36,799 bases of DNA from an uncultured Oscillospiraceae bacterium (GCA_964649485.1 CAZYRV010000006.1:6731-43529); one strand, 5' to 3'. Shown: positions 49 through 34,313, numbered from the stretch's first letter. The notes: generated by a model from the letters alone, not told the origin. Made by a program: numbers and translations.

Positions 49-717
49 ATGAGAAAGCTTAAGGCGGCGCTTGCCGTTTTTGCCGTGTCGGCTTTTGCCG
101 GCTGCAGCCATATAGATTTTGACGGCTATGCCGAGGTCAAGCGTGGTATAACCGCATTTTCAGAGCTTGAGGCGGGGCATATAACCGTTACGGATATGGA
201 AAGCGGCACAGTCGTAAACGATATGGTTTTTAAGGTTGACGACAGGGATTATCTGCTTTACAATCTTACGACAACGCTTGACGGCAAGACATACTTTGAA
301 TATCACAACGGGCGTGAGCTTTTTTACACCGGCGAAAACGGCGAGTGGAAGCTTAAAACGGTTGACGAGGGCTATGCCGGCTATACCCGAAAAAGCCGTC
401 CCCGTCTTGCCTCCGAACAGCTTTTTTACCTGAACGAGGGGGCGATCGCTTCCTCAGAGGTAAGCGGCGGCGACGGGATTACCGTTGTTAAATTCAACTA
501 TGACGTGAAAAAAATCAATGCGGAGGCAAGCGATGAGGCAAGCGCCTTTATCTCCCTTGTCACCGAATACACACTTGACGAAAACGGCGAAATCATAAGC
601 CACCGCCAGACAGCGGAGCTTGAGGACGGCGACGGCGAATACGGCTATGACTATCTTGCCGAGATAGAGCCGCTTTCCGCAGATGAGGTTGTGATTGAAT
701 CGCCGCTTTCTCAATAA
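49..717 (+). CDS. hypothetical lipoprotein
   Basis: ATG at 49 follows a GGAG. The N-terminus MRKLKAALAVFAVSAFAGC is a signal peptide with a lipobox Cys. No family recognised. Confidence 0.7.
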   Translation: MRKLKAALAVFAVSAFAGCSHIDFDGYAEVKRGITAFSELEAGHITVTDMESGTVVNDMVFKVDDRDYLLYNLTTTLDGKTYFEYHNGRELFYTGENGEWKLKTVDEGYAGYTRKSRPRLASEQLFYLNEGAIASSEVSGGDGITVVKFNYDVKKINAEASDEASAFISLVTEYTLDENGEIISHRQTAELEDGDGEYGYDYLAEIEPLSADEVVIESPLSQ

Positions 718-2384: not shown

Positions 2385-3827
2385 TTATTTCACCCCGAAA
2401 AGCCCGTTTAGCGCATCGACGAATCTTCCCAGCTCTGCAAAGGAAAAGGTCAGGCTTCCGTCAACCTTGCTTTCATCGGGAAGCGAAAACATCTCGCCGT
2501 CCTCTGAATAAATCAGAATTTCAGCGGTTGCATAAGGGCTTGTAAGGCTTATCGCCTGCCTGTTTTCGTTGTTTGAGAGGACAAAAACCGCCTCGTCGTC
2601 AAAGCTGTTTTTTAATGTATCGGTGTATTCGGTTTTGCGGTCAAGGTCAAGCGTTCCCGCAAAAATTCCCGCCTCGTCAGCAGATAAATCGGTGTAATTT
2701 AAAGCATAGGTGCTTGTTTGGCTTTCATCGGAAACCAAAACCGTGCAAGTGCCTGTGTTTTTCCCGTCAACGGCGGTGTTTTCAAGAGTAACAGAGGTTG
2801 TTGCGCCGTCGGCTGTATAAGAAAAATCAAGCTTAATGCTGTTTTCGCCCGAAAGCTCAAAGCCCGCCAGAGCGCTTTCGCCGCCGTCACGGGAAAGCGA
2901 AAAAGTCCTGTTTGTAATAATCCCCTTGTTATAATATGTCGTCATGCTGAGCCTTGCGGGCTTGTCGGCAAGCTCTGACTTAAGCTCGGCGATAAAATCA
3001 TTCATTTCCGCCGCCTTTATGCCTAAAAGCGCAACGGCGCTGTCACTGCTTCCGACGGCGCTTAAAACCGTATCCAAAAACGCAACGGTTTTTTCCTCGT
3101 CAAGCTCCATCTCGACAATGTTTCTGATTTCATCGCCGTCCTTGCCGCTTACTTTTTTATTTTTGGTAAGGCTTATATCTTCGGCATATTCGGCAAATGA
3201 CGCCGTCCATATCTCGATAATAGCATCATAACCCGCCTCTGCCTCCTCCTCGGAAACAAAGCTTGGCTTAAACGACGGAAAAGAAATTCCGCTTCCCGTG
3301 GCAAGCACGTATTTGTCAATTATATCGTTAAAATTTATGTACAAGGCGGAATTTTTGCCGTCGGGCGCAATGAAAAATTCAGCCGCAAGCTTTCCCGTCG
3401 CAGACGAAAGGTTTACGTCGCTTTTAAGAATGTCGTTTTGCGTGGCTGATTTAACGTTTATCTTATAATCAGTCGTTTTTATCTTTGATTTTGTGGAATT
3501 AATAATAGATAAAAGCTCTGATTTAAGCAAAACATCAGCATCAAAAACAGCATATTTTATCTTGCCCTCTTCTGTTTCCACGGCGGTAAGGCTTTCCGAA
3601 ACAGACTTATATTTCCCGAGAAAAACCGTTTTGAAAGCGGAAGCGTTTTTCTCCTCGGTTTTCGCCAGATATTCAGCGGGAGAAAGACTGTTTATGAGAT
3701 AATCATCGCTTTGAGAATGCGCAAGCCAAAGGATTATTCCTATGACGGCGGCGACTCCCAAAACCGCAATTGCTATTAAAAGACCGCCCGCCTTGTGCTT
3801 TGCGGGGCTTATTTGTCCTTTTGCCAT
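2385..3827 (-). CDS. hypothetical membrane-anchored protein (480 aa)
   Basis: Start ATG 3827 (MAKGQISPAKHK...) follows GGAGGG. One N-terminal TM helix (GLLIAIAVLGVAAVIGIILWL) precedes a large Ser/Thr/Asp-rich domain. No family recognised. The ORF-track N-terminal extension to 3977 covers the promoter, so I rejected it. Confidence 0.7.
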   Translation of the reverse strand: MAKGQISPAKHKAGGLLIAIAVLGVAAVIGIILWLAHSQSDDYLINSLSPAEYLAKTEEKNASAFKTVFLGKYKSVSESLTAVETEEGKIKYAVFDADVLLKSELLSIINSTKSKIKTTDYKINVKSATQNDILKSDVNLSSATGKLAAEFFIAPDGKNSALYINFNDIIDKYVLATGSGISFPSFKPSFVSEEEAEAGYDAIIEIWTASFAEYAEDISLTKNKKVSGKDGDEIRNIVEMELDEEKTVAFLDTVLSAVGSSDSAVALLGIKAAEMNDFIAELKSELADKPARLSMTTYYNKGIITNRTFSLSRDGGESALAGFELSGENSIKLDFSYTADGATTSVTLENTAVDGKNTGTCTVLVSDESQTSTYALNYTDLSADEAGIFAGTLDLDRKTEYTDTLKNSFDDEAVFVLSNNENRQAISLTSPYATAEILIYSEDGEMFSLPDESKVDGSLTFSFAELGRFVDALNGLFGVK

Positions 3828-3915
3828 TTTGCCCTCCGTGAAAATAAAATTTTGTTTTGACGGATAACCGATAATGCGGCAAAACCCGCTTTTGCCGTGG
3901 ATTTTCACGATTGTA

Positions 3916-3944
3916 ATTATAGCATTAATTCCTTCTCTTGTCAA
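3916..3944 (-). promoter_or_regulatory. sigma-A-type promoter for the 2385-3827 gene
   Basis: Minus strand reads TTGACA (3944-3939), a 17-nt spacer, then TGcTATAAT (-10 at 3921-3916). Confidence 0.55.
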
Positions 3945-4135
3945 TCGGAAACCCGCTGCCTTGAGGATATTCCACACTTCACGAGCTTTTTTATGAAAAT
4001 TTCGCTAAACACTAGAAATTGCAATGTTTTTGTGCTATAATAATCATAAGTGTTTCATGCGCATGGTTATTCAACGCAGACAAAAGCCGCTTTTAAAACG
4101 CAAAACGGCTTATCACGACAAACGGAGGAACAGAC

Positions 4136-23379: not shown

Positions 23380-23976
23380 ATGATTTCCACAAAAGCGGGG
23401 TGTAAATTGAACAAAAGCAAAATTGCACGGGCGAAATCGCCCTATACCGCACGGCAAATCCGTGAATATGTCGATTTTTATTTCAAGGTTCGGCTTGATT
23501 TCATAGTAAATTCCTTCAGAATTGCCGCCGTTGCGCTTTTTTTGATAAGCATTGCGGCTTTCGTCACGAGGGAATATGTGATATTTTCCGGTCTTGTTCT
23601 GGGCGCAATTGTCTGCGGGTTCATGCCTCTGATTATGAAGTCGGTTTTTTTCGCAATCGTAAAAAACAACGGCTTTTTCCCGCTTGGCGGCGATGTTGAT
23701 TTCACCTTTTTCGAGGACGGAATTTCCGCTTTAAGCGGAGGAAAAAGCATTGATATTGCCGTGGACGAGGTTTTTCTTGTATACGAATCTGTCCACAGCC
23801 TTTATTTTTATTGCAGAAAAAAAGACGAAAACGGCGCTGTCGGAAAAGCTTTCGTTTTCATGACGACGAAAAACTCATTCGTCACAGGCTCTCATCTCGA
23901 TGTCCAAAAGCTTTATTCAACACGGCTCAAGAGAAAATATAAAATCCGAGTCAAGCAAAAATACAGGACGGCATAA
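23380..23976 (+). CDS. hypothetical membrane protein
   Basis: Two adjacent TM helices (IAAVALFLISIAAFV, FSGLVLGAIVCGFMPLIM) precede a soluble C-terminal part. An in-frame TTG at 23407 is an alternative start. No family assigned. Confidence 0.6.
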   Translation: MISTKAGCKLNKSKIARAKSPYTARQIREYVDFYFKVRLDFIVNSFRIAAVALFLISIAAFVTREYVIFSGLVLGAIVCGFMPLIMKSVFFAIVKNNGFFPLGGDVDFTFFEDGISALSGGKSIDIAVDEVFLVYESVHSLYFYCRKKDENGAVGKAFVFMTTKNSFVTGSHLDVQKLYSTRLKRKYKIRVKQKYRTA

Positions 23977-30223: not shown

Positions 30224-30694
30224 TTATTGGGAAATAAGCCTTGGCAGGTTTTCGTTGCTTACATTCTTGACATCAAAAACAAAGGTTTTGTCAAGCGAAA
30301 CAGGCTCGCCCTTTCCCTCGTCGGGATAACCAAAGCCCGTAAACGCAATCGAAAGCGTGTCGCCCTCATGCTTTACTGTATAGTCAAGCTTGGCATAGTT
30401 GCTATACTCGGTTGCGACGTCGGTTGCGTATTGCCACACAACATCTGAAAGAGCCGAATAAACAGGCTGTCTATCAAATGTTAAATCGGTCTGGCTTTCA
30501 AAAAAGGGGTAATTTACCGCATATCCGCCCTGGTCAAGCTTTTGGGTATCGGCATTTTCAGTATCCACAAGTATAGCCATATTGTTATACACAAACTTTT
30601 CGGTGTAGATGTGAATAAAAAATAGAGCTGAAGCAATAGCAATTAGAAAAAGTGGTATGCCAATGTATATCAAAAGCTTTTTTGATTTTTTCAC
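30224..30694 (-). CDS. hypothetical membrane-anchored protein
   Basis: GTG start at 30694 lies 6 nt after AGGAGG. It has one N-terminal TM helix (LLIYIGIPLFLIAIASALFFI). No family recognised. Confidence 0.6.
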   Translation of the reverse strand: MKKSKKLLIYIGIPLFLIAIASALFFIHIYTEKFVYNNMAILVDTENADTQKLDQGGYAVNYPFFESQTDLTFDRQPVYSALSDVVWQYATDVATEYSNYAKLDYTVKHEGDTLSIAFTGFGYPDEGKGEPVSLDKTFVFDVKNVSNENLPRLISQ

Positions 30695-30920: not shown

Positions 30921-30953
30921 AAAAAACCGCCTCGATTATCGCTCGGGGCGGTT
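30921..30953 (-). terminator. rho-independent terminator of the SPFH operon
   Basis: On the minus strand the stem is AACCGCCCCGAG/CTCGAGGCGGTT-like (30925-30934 with 30944-30953), followed by TTTTTT (complement of 30921-30926). Confidence 0.75.
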
Positions 30954-31017
30954 TGGTACTAATCCGTAATTGAAATCCCTGCTGGAAATTTTCTTAAAAT
31001 CAAGATCTAGCATAATG

Positions 31018-32340
31018 TTAAATCTTGTCTTCCTCATTAAACTTATCGCCGCATTCTGGGCAGAATTTAGGAGGATTTGCAGGGTCCGGAGGATTCCAGC
31101 CGCATTTGTTGCAGGAATATTTGCTTGCTGATGGGCGCTGTGCGCCGCATTCCGCACAGAATTTACCGCTGTTTTGCGCACCGCATTTTTCACACTTCCA
31201 GCCGCCGTCAGCAGGTGAGGCATCGGGCTTTGGCTTGCCGCATTCGTGGCAAAAACGGCCTGTGTTGTCCGCACCGCATTCGCATTTCCATGTGTTTTCA
31301 GCGGGCGCTTGCGGCTGAACAGGCTGTGGCGACTGCGGCTGTGTCGGGCCGAATGAGTTCAATATATTTCCGCCCGCCTGATTCGCCATGTCAAAGCCGG
31401 CAAAGCCAACCATTGCGCCGCCGGGGTTTCCGCCTGCTTTTTCAATACCGCTTCCGACCTTGCCCGCCATAAACGCTTTAAGCGTTTTGTCGTCGGACAT
31501 TGTGTCCGCCCAAAGCCTGTCCTTGAGAAGCTCTTGGCTTTTTGCGGAAAGTGTCGGCGGATTTATGCCAATGTTTGAAATTGTGAATCCTCTTGGCTCC
31601 CAGAGAGGTGAAGCGGAGGATTTAACGTTTTCGAGAAGCTGTATTCCTTGGCTTGCAATCATGTTGTAGGACACGCCCTGCCCCGCAAGCATATTAAGCG
31701 CTTGGTTTATCACCGTCATAAACTCGGTTTTGTACTGCTCGTTTCCGAAAATATCAACAACATCAATATCGTCAGAGCTTGTCCCCTTGCCCGCAACCTC
31801 CTTATAAAACTGGACGGCATGAAGCGCATCGGGAATCTTAATTGCAAAGGTGCCGTAAAATCCGATTTCAACCGTTGTATTATATCTCGGGTCGGGGTAA
31901 GGCACGGGCTTGCTTGTGCCGTATTTAATCCCCGGAAGCTCTTGGAGGTTGATATAAACAACCTGCTGTTCGAATGCGGGAGTTCCGCCGAAGGTGAAAC
32001 GTGAAAGCGCATCTTTGAGCGAATCCATAATCTGCCCCGCAAAAATGGACGGTGCGGACGAGCTGTCGTAGGTGTATTGACCCGGCTCTGTGACTATATT
32101 CGTGATTTTGCCGTTGTCAACCGTAAGCATACAGACGTTTTCGGGAACGTTTATTTTCGAGCCGTTGCTGATTACGTTGTCCGTGCCTTTGGTGTTCGAC
32201 GTGCGGCTTGAACCGCTGCTTATTTTCGTGCCTTTTCTCAAAATAACCGTATTATCAATCTCGGGACAGTGGATACCCTCTTTCCACGAATCGCCGAGAG
32301 TTCCGCCGACTGCGGAGGTGAAAGCTTTGATAAGACCCAT
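31018..32340 (-). CDS. SPFH/Band-7 family protein (YdjI/COG4260-like) with three C-terminal zinc ribbons
   Basis: The N-terminus MGLIKAFTSAVGGTLGDSWKE...NTKGTDNVISNGSKI...FTFGG matches the Band_7_1 ('virion core protein-like') family as I remember it. A Gly/Pro/Gln linker follows. It then carries WKCECGADNTGRFCHECG, WKCEKCGAQNSGKFCAECG and YSCNKCG...FCPECG. Confidence 0.8.
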   Translation of the reverse strand: MGLIKAFTSAVGGTLGDSWKEGIHCPEIDNTVILRKGTKISSGSSRTSNTKGTDNVISNGSKINVPENVCMLTVDNGKITNIVTEPGQYTYDSSSAPSIFAGQIMDSLKDALSRFTFGGTPAFEQQVVYINLQELPGIKYGTSKPVPYPDPRYNTTVEIGFYGTFAIKIPDALHAVQFYKEVAGKGTSSDDIDVVDIFGNEQYKTEFMTVINQALNMLAGQGVSYNMIASQGIQLLENVKSSASPLWEPRGFTISNIGINPPTLSAKSQELLKDRLWADTMSDDKTLKAFMAGKVGSGIEKAGGNPGGAMVGFAGFDMANQAGGNILNSFGPTQPQSPQPVQPQAPAENTWKCECGADNTGRFCHECGKPKPDASPADGGWKCEKCGAQNSGKFCAECGAQRPSASKYSCNKCGWNPPDPANPPKFCPECGDKFNEEDKI

Positions 32341-32355
32341 GATGAACCCCTTTCG

Positions 32356-33093
32356 TTATTTCTGCTTGACTGGCAAGACCTCGCTTACCTGCCAAATTCT
32401 TGATGAAATTGCGGTTATACCGCTTCCGCAGTATTCGCAGAATATATTGTCGCCGACAGCGGACACAGGTGCGCCGCAGTTCGGACAATTGCTTGCGTAG
32501 ACGGACTGGTTTCCGTCGAGATAATCGTCCTGATTATAGGCGAGAGCAACAGCATAAACCGCTTGAACAAGCCGTTTATCAGCCTTTTTTCCGTCCTTCG
32601 AATAATACTGAACAGAAATTTCAAACCTTGCCGTTGCGGTTTTCGCCGTCGTGTTAAAGCTTGAGATGACACATTTATGAATGCTTACGTCCTCGAAATC
32701 AAGCCGCCGTCCGTTCTGGCGGTTGACCTCGATTTGCGCCGCAAGCTTTGGCTTGTACATTGCGCAATTTATTGTGAGAAAATCCGTGCTTTCCTTTTCA
32801 AGGCATTCAAACGTCTGAAGCAGGGCGGTTTTTGCCATTGAAAGCATTTCGTCAAAGCCCATTTCGGGGAATTTTTTCTCGATTTCAAGCTTGTAAAGGG
32901 CGCTCATATCGTGGACGGGAAGCGCCTTTGTGTTGGCGATATCCTTTTTAAACTCATTTCCCAACCATTCAAGCGAAATGCCCATATTGCTTTTGAGAAA
33001 GCGGTCCGCCCTGTGCTTTAAAACTACTATGACGATTAAAAGCCCGACGACAACTGCGATAATTACGCCGAAAAAAATCAGAATCCCGCCCAT
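32356..33093 (-). CDS. single-pass membrane protein with a Tim44-like domain and a zinc ribbon (paralog of the upstream gene)
   Basis: Start ATG 33093 (MGGILIFFGVIIAVVVGLLIVIVVL...) lies 1 nt after the upstream stop (TGAtATG). The C-terminal ribbon is CPNCGAPVSAVGDNIFCEYCGS. The ORF-track start at 33261 would overlap the upstream gene by 166 nt in a low-complexity frame. Confidence 0.7.
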   Translation of the reverse strand: MGGILIFFGVIIAVVVGLLIVIVVLKHRADRFLKSNMGISLEWLGNEFKKDIANTKALPVHDMSALYKLEIEKKFPEMGFDEMLSMAKTALLQTFECLEKESTDFLTINCAMYKPKLAAQIEVNRQNGRRLDFEDVSIHKCVISSFNTTAKTATARFEISVQYYSKDGKKADKRLVQAVYAVALAYNQDDYLDGNQSVYASNCPNCGAPVSAVGDNIFCEYCGSGITAISSRIWQVSEVLPVKQK

Positions 33094-33094
33094 A

Positions 33095-34189
33095 TCAGTT
33101 ACCGTTTGGCTTATCGTCGGTATTTCCTGTTTCGCCGCTTGAATCGCCGCCGCTTGTGCCGCCGCCGACATAGCCCATGCCGCCGCCGTTGTTATTATTT
33201 CCGCCGTTGTTGTCGTAGAGGTCGGCGCCTGAAATTCCCTCGTCGGGTGTGTTTTGGTCAAAAACGCCGAAGTCGCTTAAAACCCAGCTGTACTGTCCGG
33301 TTGTGACGACAGAGCCGCAATATTCACACTTTCCGCTTGAGCTTATTTCAAGGGGAGCGCCGCAGTTCGGGCAGTTATGGCCCTTTTCCTCGCCTGTGGC
33401 GGTGTTCGTTTTCACGTCAACAGAGCGCATAAACTTCATACGATAGTGCATAGGCCAGCGTGTGGTTTTATCGCCCCTGACAACCGCCCCCGTGTCCTCG
33501 TTTATGTGATATTCTACAAATTTAGAAAAAAGATAAACGGTTATGTATTCGTATTGCGCATCACGGCTGTAGCTTGTCATGTAAGCGCTGTTTACGGCAA
33601 TGTTTTCAAGCACGGTTTTAATTTTATTCTTGATTTTTGCCTCAATCTGCTTTTGGCTCATATTATAAAGATTTTCGTGGAAAACAGGGCGGACAACGCT
33701 TAAATCACGGTCGCACCAAGCCTGCTGGATATCCATATAAACCGATTTAGTAAAGCTTATAAAGTCGTCCGCCGAAAAATTCGGGTCGTGCCGCTTGATT
33801 ATGCCTTCAATCTGAACAGTTCGGTCGGGGATTGCCCTGTTGTTCAGGTTTGAGGGCAAGGGCTTATTATTTGAAAGCTTTCCTGATTTGGAAAGAATGA
33901 CAAGCACGATAATAACAACAATAACAATGACGGAAATTCCCGATGAAAAGCCGCCTCCGCTTCCTCCGTTGTAATCGTCGTCATCGTCGTCCCATGCGAC
34001 AAAGCCGCCTCCGCCGCCGTCCCAGTCGCCTCCGCCGCCCCAATCTCCGCCGCCTCCGCCAAAGTCGTTATGGTCGCCGAAAAGCGGCTTTGCTCCGTCG
34101 GAAAAAGATGAAGAAATCGCCGAAACCGAAAGCGCCGCAAGGGAAAATGCCAGAATTGCTGTGATTATAAAGCTGATAAGCTTTTTCAT
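33095..34189 (-). CDS. membrane protein with a Gly/Asp/Trp-rich ectoloop, a Tim44-like domain, a zinc ribbon and a Gly/Asn tail
   Basis: AAGGAGGG precedes ATG 34189. It has a signal/TM helix, a GGGGGDWGGGGDWDGGGGGFVAWDDDDDDY loop and a second TM helix. The Tim44-like pattern is FSADDFISFTKSVYMDIQQAWCDRDL...YITVYL...EDTGAVVRGD. It ends with CPNCGAPLEISSSGKCEYCGS. Confidence 0.75.
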   Translation of the reverse strand: MKKLISFIITAILAFSLAALSVSAISSSFSDGAKPLFGDHNDFGGGGGDWGGGGDWDGGGGGFVAWDDDDDDYNGGSGGGFSSGISVIVIVVIIVLVILSKSGKLSNNKPLPSNLNNRAIPDRTVQIEGIIKRHDPNFSADDFISFTKSVYMDIQQAWCDRDLSVVRPVFHENLYNMSQKQIEAKIKNKIKTVLENIAVNSAYMTSYSRDAQYEYITVYLFSKFVEYHINEDTGAVVRGDKTTRWPMHYRMKFMRSVDVKTNTATGEEKGHNCPNCGAPLEISSSGKCEYCGSVVTTGQYSWVLSDFGVFDQNTPDEGISGADLYDNNGGNNNNGGGMGYVGGGTSGGDSSGETGNTDDKPNGN

Positions 34190-34284
34190 ACACCCTCCTT
34201 TAAGGCTTTAGAAAGCCGCCGCAAGCGTTTTGTTTAAGAGAAAATCAATTTGGAGATTTATTTATATAGAGTTATTTACGTATA

Positions 34285-34313
34285 ATTATACTATTAAAGA
34301 GATTTAAAGTCAA
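34285..34313 (-). promoter_or_regulatory. sigma-A-type promoter for the SPFH operon
   Basis: Minus strand reads TTGACT (34313-34308), a 17-nt spacer, then TATAAT (34290-34285). Confidence 0.6.

Follow-up and report, generated by a model that had tools for sequence, protein, structure and literature searches.

We describe here a membrane operon of three genes found in a stretch of 36,799 nucleotides (nt) from an uncultured Oscillospiraceae bacterium (GCA_964649485.1, CAZYRV010000006.1:6731-43529). This whole stretch is referred to below as the window, and positions are counted from its first letter. An open reading frame (ORF) search and direct reading of the sequence found three closely spaced ORFs on the minus strand, from 34189 to 31018, designated gene 1, gene 2, and gene 3, and these form one operon (Table 1). 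Genes 1 and 2 code for membrane proteins with a Tim44-like domain followed by a zinc ribbon, and gene 3 codes for an SPFH protein with three more ribbons. A preliminary description made from the sequence alone had given the same three-gene layout, with its promoter and terminator and with gene spacings of 1 nt and 15 nt, and its coordinates and gap sizes proved exact. The stem of the terminator has one internal mismatch, and hence it was missed by a simple terminator scan and found by RNA folding; the RNA fold has an energy of -16.8 kcal/mol (z = -2.81), and an equally good fold appeared in 1 of 200 shuffled sequences. No Rfam family matches the leader of about 95 nt, and the same search found no riboswitch or other element near the operon. 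Inside gene 3 there is a promoter-like site (TTGACA-16-TATAGT, 32093-32120, minus strand, 11/12) that is probably a product of chance, since the region contains 11 promoter-like sites versus 4.7 expected.

Table 1. Features of the three-gene operon and of the proteins that it encodes (TM, transmembrane; RBS, ribosome-binding site; aa, amino acids)
Feature	Window position	Strand	Residues (aa)	Observations
Promoter TTGACT-17-TATAAT	34285..34313	-		sigma-70 type, 11/12 consensus matches, ~95 nt 5' of the gene 1 ATG
RBS of gene 1, AAGGAGGG	34193..34200	-		seen directly in the sequence
Gene 1	33095..34189	-		364 aa, TGA stop
Gene 1, signal peptide or TM1			1-23	hydrophobic helix 4-22, KK n-region, SVSA motif, signal peptide-like
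Gene 1, acidic Gly/Asp/Trp ectoloop	33950..34120	-	24-80
Gene 1, second TM helix			81-99	hydropathy
Gene 1, Tim44-like (NTF2-fold) domain	33416..33799	-	131-258	Pfam PF04280
Gene 1, zinc ribbon	33317..33373	-	273-291	CPNCGAP...CEYC
Gene 2	32356..33093	-		245 aa, ATG 1 nt past the gene 1 TGA
Gene 2, N-terminal TM helix			6-24	followed by KHRADR
Gene 2, diverged Tim44-like domain			~70-195	family profile
Gene 2, zinc ribbon			203-222	same type as the gene 1 ribbon
Gene 3	31018..32340	-		440 aa, ATG at 32340, spacer of 15 nt from gene 2 with AAAGGGG
Gene 3, three four-Cys zinc ribbons	31048..31284	-	353-369, 383-400, 410-431
Intrinsic terminator	30921..30954	-		11-bp interrupted stem, 7-nt loop; hairpin 30954-30924, U-run to 30921

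All the parts that had been proposed for the gene 1 protein, from the signal peptide or TM helix to the Gly/Asn tail, were found. Its central domain matches the Pfam family Tim44 (PF04280) with an E value of 5e-21 and 75.7 bits (cutoff, 29.6), and an AlphaFold model built with 51 homologs has a predicted local distance difference test (pLDDT) score above 90 at residues 120 to 260. In Foldseek this core has its best PDB matches in 2cw9 (C-domain of human Tim44, E = 1.3e-6), in 3qk9 and 2fxt (both yeast Tim44), and in the mitoribosomal protein mL45. The C-domain of Tim44 is an NTF2-like module that binds membranes and has a hydrophobic pocket. Against the NCBIfam models of TimA and Tim44-TimA (NF033778 and NF033779), gene 1 scored 37.2 bits versus a cutoff of 80 and 16.6 bits versus a cutoff of 200, and gene 2 gave no match to either; with scores this far under the cutoffs, genes 1 and 2 are not orthologs of TimA. 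The four Cys residues of the gene 1 ribbon are invariant across the 51 homologs, and the last 60 residues are of low complexity and rich in Gly and Asn. The ectoloop, of about 57 residues, contains 21 Gly, 12 Asp, and 3 Trp. Its pattern in the 51 homologs is F-D-x-N-D-Y and then G-G-x-D-W-G repeats; N41 and D42 are invariant. This motif resembles a cation-binding or wall-binding motif, and it has no matches to known domains.

For gene 2 alone, a Pfam search and a BLASTP comparison with gene 1 both pick up nothing but the ribbon. At the family level, however, hhalign aligned the gene 2 family (86 sequences) with the gene 1 family (51 sequences) with a probability of 99.7% and an E value of 4.9e-26 over 179 columns, which span both the Tim44-like domain and the ribbon, and 33 of the 86 members of the gene 2 family have a direct Pfam match to Tim44. 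Therefore, gene 2 is a real, if diverged, paralog of gene 1, with one TM helix and the same ribbon, as had been proposed. The Tim44-like assignment thus holds for both proteins, by Pfam and Foldseek for gene 1 and only via the family profiles for gene 2. The gene 2 family comprises 443 clusters at 50% identity, and no solved structure related to it turned up in a sequence search of the PDB. Family members are mostly 225 to 265 aa long (150 representatives) and M1 is nearly invariant, so the ATG at 33093 is the true start of gene 2, rather than that of a longer ORF that begins with TTG (301 aa).

Gene 3 matches Band_7_1 (PF13421) over residues 54 to 261 (E = 8.6e-13, 48.8 bits; cutoff, 24) and is, as previously suggested, an SPFH protein with a flexible linker and three ribbons. 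The linker is of low complexity and rich in Gly, Pro, and Gln. The pattern of the first two ribbons, W-x-C-x(1,2)-C-G-x2-N-x-G-[KR]-F-C-x2-C-G, is kept in homologs, the nearest of which is 56% identical. These two ribbons resemble RanBP2/NZF-type fingers, and one homolog (P0084) has a match to zf-RanBP (PF00641). A PDB sequence search found no close relative of gene 3, only marginal matches to stomatin (E ~0.3). No hydrophobic segment appeared in the hydropathy scan of gene 3, and the protein is predicted to be soluble. In genes 1 and 2 the TM helices precede Lys/Arg residues; hence, the C termini of both are predicted to be cytoplasmic. The module has five ribbons, the number given in the preliminary description; the cytoplasmic side that was also assigned to them is a prediction from the positive-inside rule.

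The distribution of the three genes was followed by scanning species-representative genomes, one for each species, with the gene 1 family as the query, since the alignment of the gene 2 family has no conserved stretch of 7 to 10 columns. It found 141 species genomes, a lower bound limited by the pattern used. The loci of the best 80 of these 141 genomes (numbered L008 to L087 in our collection of loci, all anchored on gene 1) were tallied with hidden Markov models (HMMs) of the three families. Nearly all of them are labeled as metagenome-assembled genomes (MAGs) of Ruminiclostridium, Oscillospiraceae, Ruminococcaceae, or Clostridia from gut or rumen. Genes 1, 2, and 3 are found in the same order and on the same strand in 57 loci, and 4 others have the full trio with extra tandem copies of gene 1; that is, 61 of the 72 untruncated loci hold the complete trio in a fixed order on one strand. 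The rest have gene 1 and gene 3 only (4 loci), gene 1 and gene 2 but without a gene 3 for at least 1.4 kb (4 loci), or gene 1 alone (3 loci), and 8 loci are cut by the end of the contig. In two cases of a solo gene 1 (one of them cut by the contig end), the full trio is present on another contig of the same MAG (L084/L057 and L080/L072). The trio is also found in L001 and around a gene 2 homolog of only 21% identity (L104 to L106). Conservation of the three genes together had been put forward as one of the points on which the proposal could fail; the trio proved strongly co-conserved, in the order membrane protein, membrane protein, SPFH protein.

Extra copies of gene 1 are most numerous in a Ruminiclostridium MAG (L085:4688-12388), with six tandem ORFs of the gene 1 family, some of them short and possibly fragments, before gene 2 and gene 3; L033, L069, and L070 have two copies each. 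Directly past the terminator of the window there is a 156-aa ORF on the minus strand (30224-30694) with an N-terminal hydrophobic helix, no Pfam match, and a promoter-like site of its own (TTAACA-17-TATAAT, 30825-30797). Homologs of this ORF and of the flanking ClC and CopA genes are found in none of the 80 loci; hence, the 156-aa ORF lies outside the module. Since the flanks differ between genomes, the trio persists as a unit and therefore travels together while its surroundings change.

The system most similar to this one is SamGHI (YdjGHI) of Bacillus subtilis, to which the preliminary description had drawn a parallel. YdjI is a soluble protein whose membrane foci depend on YdjG and YdjH, and YdjH binds both YdjI and PspA (PMC8581546). 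YdjG has been described as a protein with two ribbons, a core of the NTF2-like type with a relationship to YpeB, and one segment that is TM (Ravi et al. 2024, PMC11237479). A 2026 preprint reports that signaling by SamGH is restrained by SamI, that the phenotype does not require PspA, and that SamGHI has roles independent of PspA (bioRxiv 10.64898/2026.02.06.704340). As a reference, we used a B. subtilis-type pspA-ydjGHI locus (L006), located via a published primer sequence, in which Pfam finds Band_7_1 and one ribbon in YdjI, only the N-terminal ribbons in YdjG, and a TPM domain in YdjH. The family profile of gene 3 aligns with B. subtilis YdjI over 281 columns, with a probability of 99.0% and an E value of 6.3e-18. 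The YdjG family, however, aligns with the gene 1 and gene 2 families at one ribbon only, the second of SamG (E = 1e-9 to 3e-8). An HMM of the SamG/YdjG family recognized no ORF in the window or in L008 to L087. As for SamH/YdjH, genes 1 to 3 have no TPM_phosphatase match, and phmmer with YdjH gave no match to the window or to any of the 80 related loci. For YdjG, the AlphaFold model (18-sequence alignment) has a mean pLDDT of 47, too poor for a structure search on a Tim44/NTF2-like core. At the level of sequence profiles, homology of genes 1 and 2 to SamG beyond the ribbon was considered and is rejected.

Thus, the SPFH component is common to both systems, since YdjI aligns with gene 3, and the membrane partners are not, since no homology of SamG or SamH to genes 1 and 2 is detectable beyond the ribbon. 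The proposed parallel stands for the homology of the SPFH protein and for the gene order; it does not extend to genes 1 and 2, which are not homologs of YdjG and YdjH. Both systems combine, within a single operon, an SPFH protein of the Band_7_1 type that is soluble, has a linker of low complexity, and carries one or more ribbons at its C terminus, with a pair of membrane proteins, one or both of which bear cytoplasmic ribbons of a similar sequence type. The membrane proteins of the trio are two Tim44-like/ribbon paralogs, whereas SamG starts with two ribbons, continues with an unrelated core, and ends in a TM segment, so that the ribbon comes after the globular domain in genes 1 and 2 and before it in SamG. 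SamH has an extracytoplasmic TPM domain without a counterpart in the trio, and YdjI/SamI has one ribbon versus three in gene 3. Finally, the B. subtilis operon is headed by pspA and depends on sigma-W, whereas the operon of the trio has no pspA and its promoter is of the sigma-70 type. With SamG, SamH, and pspA all missing, three of the four features that define a SamGHI/PspA operon, this locus is not a member of that group.

The lack of pspA deserves a separate comment, since it had been taken as a mark of a distinct module. The claim that there is no pspA-like gene in the operon or in the window is borne out: when the ORFs from all six frames of the window were searched by phmmer for B. subtilis PspA, the best E value was 0.43, to an antisense ORF, in a single-sequence search that a very divergent PspA could escape. 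The same kind of single-sequence query found no PspA within ~6 kb in the 80 related loci, and in the flanks that were fetched PspA matches came from Bacillus loci only. However, the absence of an adjacent pspA is common outside Bacillus and not distinctive, since true sets of SamI, SamG, and SamH in other Firmicutes (L002, L099, L100, and L102) also go without it.

These SamG- and SamH-bearing loci belong to the surroundings of the gene 3 subfamily itself. In L002, L099, L100, and L102, SPFH proteins 35 to 38% identical to gene 3 adjoin true homologs of SamG and SamH (TPM), with no adjacent pspA. The SPFH proteins of L098, L089, and L101 are in the same identity range. In L098 the SPFH protein is found with a DUF4428 protein and an unknown protein, and L089 combines a 519-aa DUF5684 protein, a gene 2-like protein, and an SPFH protein. 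The 519-aa protein (L089:4429-5988) stands in the place of gene 1 and has an N-terminal DUF5684 membrane region and a weak ribbon-like match at its C terminus. L101 (MT837562.1, 1071-5072) has, on one strand, a gene 2-like Tim44/ribbon protein, an SPFH protein, a SamG-like protein, and a SamH-like protein, and hence the two types of partners can coexist. Three of these loci (L100, OR846590.1; L102, OR846934.1; L101, MT837562.1) are filed as phages and carry operons of the SPFH-SamG-SamH type; the phage label looks doubtful. The Tim44-like pair is best seen as one of several interchangeable sets of ribbon-bearing membrane partners for one SPFH subfamily. A zinc ribbon, predicted to be cytoplasmic, is the sole feature common to all the partner sets whose proteins were scanned, which makes docking through the ribbons a concrete and testable proposal.

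Considering all of the above, we hold with moderate confidence that the trio would form an SPFH scaffold complex docked at the membrane, which would be functionally of one kind with SamGHI but would use a different pair of membrane partners. The products of genes 1 and 2 would be paralogous single-pass membrane proteins that place their Tim44-like domains and ribbons in the cytoplasm, against the inner leaflet. Gene 3, predicted to be unable to reach the membrane alone, would most likely be recruited by the gene 1/gene 2 pair, which is probably a hetero-oligomer. Once recruited, it may assemble into an SPFH oligomer that stabilizes the membrane and/or restrains a sensor, and by analogy with SamI it could act as a brake on signaling by its membrane partners. 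The ectoloop of gene 1, the only part of the module predicted to be extracellular, is a candidate for an envelope-facing sensor or input site. Overall, the complex would monitor or stabilize the cytoplasmic membrane and would need no PspA from the operon itself, whether or not it uses one encoded elsewhere.

Several observations weigh against this interpretation. The likely docking elements would be the ribbons present on all three proteins, which is a guess on our part. The pairwise identity of gene 3 and YdjI is only 18%, and the YdjG core (residues 90 to 310, diversified alignment) gave probabilities of 0.1 to 0.5% against the gene 1 and gene 2 families. Since only a ribbon is shared with SamG and SamH, it is the context that makes the functional analogy to SamGHI. 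In addition, the four loci with genes 1 and 2 and no nearby gene 3, the four with genes 1 and 3 and no gene 2, and a distant gene 2 homolog that stands alone (L091) indicate that the partnership of the three genes is strong but not obligate.

SPFH proteins usually form ring or cage oligomers that enclose clients, and gene 3 has no anchor of its own, so one could imagine a cage like those of HflK/C-FtsH or stomatin-NfeD that regulates a membrane client outside the operon, which could be a protease or a transporter, while the products of genes 1 and 2 help only with assembly or anchoring. We consider this unlikely, since no protease, NfeD, or conserved transporter is linked to the genes in ~90 loci and the conserved partners are always ribbon-bearing membrane proteins. 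A different role is suggested by mitochondria, in which Tim44 acts as the tether between mtHsp70 and TIM23, and mL45 as the one between the mitoribosome and the inner membrane. The Tim44-like proteins could be tethers for the translation or secretion machinery, gated or organized by the SPFH protein, so that the module would couple the state of the membrane to protein synthesis or export and would not serve in membrane repair. The core of gene 1 superposes best on Tim44 C-domains and mL45, which fits this role, and so does the reduced translation and starvation-like state that follows the loss of SamI in B. subtilis. Moreover, 7 of the 80 gene 1 orthologs have a C-terminal ribosomal L7/L12 domain (PF00542; E = 1.2e-15 in L021, 5451-6767; the others are L016, L023, L035, L048, L027, and L043). 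The C-terminal domain of L7/L12 binds translational GTPases in the ribosome, and the fusions are a hint of a link between a Tim44-like membrane protein and these GTPases. However, gene 1 of the window ends in the Gly/Asn tail instead of an L12 domain. Of the six L12-fused loci that are untruncated, four have gene 2 without a nearby gene 3, and the orthologs with this fusion may belong to a branch that has diverged in function. In the loci scanned, the trio is not linked to any ribosomal, Sec, or chaperone gene. A role as tethers therefore seems distinctly unlikely, and we have serious doubts about its most specific version, in which the trio, independently of PspA, would couple the state of the membrane to translation or secretion as an SPFH-gated counterpart of Tim44/mL45, with the ectoloop as a sensor and the L7/L12 domain as a handle.

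The preliminary description had also suggested an effector triggered by phages, that is, an anti-phage or abortive-infection system that would act on the membrane upon infection. The trio is indeed an autonomous cassette with nonconserved flanks, the name "phage shock" ties the wider system to phage stress, and nine GenBank records labeled as phages encode homologs of gene 3 with 28 to 37% identity (tblastn, INPHARED-derived collection). However, the three records that were checked are all unannotated and flagged UNVERIFIED or UNVERIFIED_ORG, and we do not count these records as signs of a phage origin. Neither PADLOC-DB 2.0 (E values up to 0.1) nor PHROGs gave a match to any of the three proteins, and IMG/VR contained no relative of gene 3 and only ribbon-length matches to gene 1. 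Furthermore, the window is core chromosome with a housekeeping neighborhood, no partner of the nuclease, NTPase, protease, or pore-forming type is present, and the trio is kept across most sampled species of one family, unlike the patchy distribution of defense islands. This suggestion is hence abandoned here, and a defensive role for the trio appears extremely improbable.

The rest of the window contains a spoIIAA-spoIIAB-sigF operon, a formate-tetrahydrofolate ligase gene, tsaE/tsaB, upp, recJ, relA/spoT, an MCP gene, copA, a ClC gene, and two tRNAs. The first of these, on the minus strand at 748-2260, codes for SpoIIAA (STAS), SpoIIAB (HATPase_c_2), and a sigma-F-like protein, and its presence indicates that the source is an endospore-forming Firmicute. 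A sporulation-specific role of the trio was considered because of this operon and set aside; the sporulation genes lie ~29 kb away on an unrelated stretch, and the promoter of the trio is sigma-70-like. Three other ORFs of the window, at 2385-3977 (minus strand, 530 aa), 49-717 (plus strand, 222 aa), and 23380-23976 (plus strand, 198 aa), have no Pfam match at E values up to 1e-4.

Returning to the SPFH scaffold complex that we favor, its components can be compared with other known systems. With Tim44, mL45, and TimA, genes 1 and 2 share the Tim44-like NTF2-fold domain and, in the case of the mitochondrial proteins, the predicted arrangement of an anchored domain that faces the compartment in which proteins are made. 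They differ from Tim44 and TimA in the addition of a signal peptide with an ectoloop, a C-terminal ribbon, and the linkage to an SPFH protein, and no Hsp70 or translocase partner like that of Tim44 is evident for the trio. As in HflK/C-FtsH, stomatin/QmcA-NfeD, and flotillin, the SPFH protein would be expected to oligomerize at the membrane and to organize or restrain its partners. In contrast to HflK/C, stomatin, and flotillin, gene 3 lacks a membrane anchor and, as far as Pfam recognizes, any flotillin or coiled-coil lid region, and the partners in the trio are neither proteases, as in HflK/C-FtsH, nor NfeD, as in QmcA-NfeD. Nothing in the trio is mechanistically unprecedented, and we do not regard it as a new category of system. 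Searches of the full text of the literature found no bacterial case in which Tim44-like proteins are linked to SPFH, Band-7, or zinc ribbons, and, in agreement with the preliminary description, no functional description of this architecture was found in the literature searched.

Membrane homeostasis depends centrally on SPFH proteins and on systems of the PspA type. The trio is present in many Oscillospiraceae of gut and rumen that are otherwise known only as MAGs, and it gives a context and a testable role to the Tim44-like proteins of Firmicutes, none of which is functionally described in the papers searched. Together with the related loci, it provides a natural series of partner swaps around one type of SPFH protein: the Tim44-like pair, SamG/SamH, the hybrid of both, the DUF5684 protein with a gene 2-like protein, and the DUF4428 protein with an unknown protein. 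Replacement of partners along this series could reveal how soluble SPFH proteins of the SamI/YdjI type are recruited.

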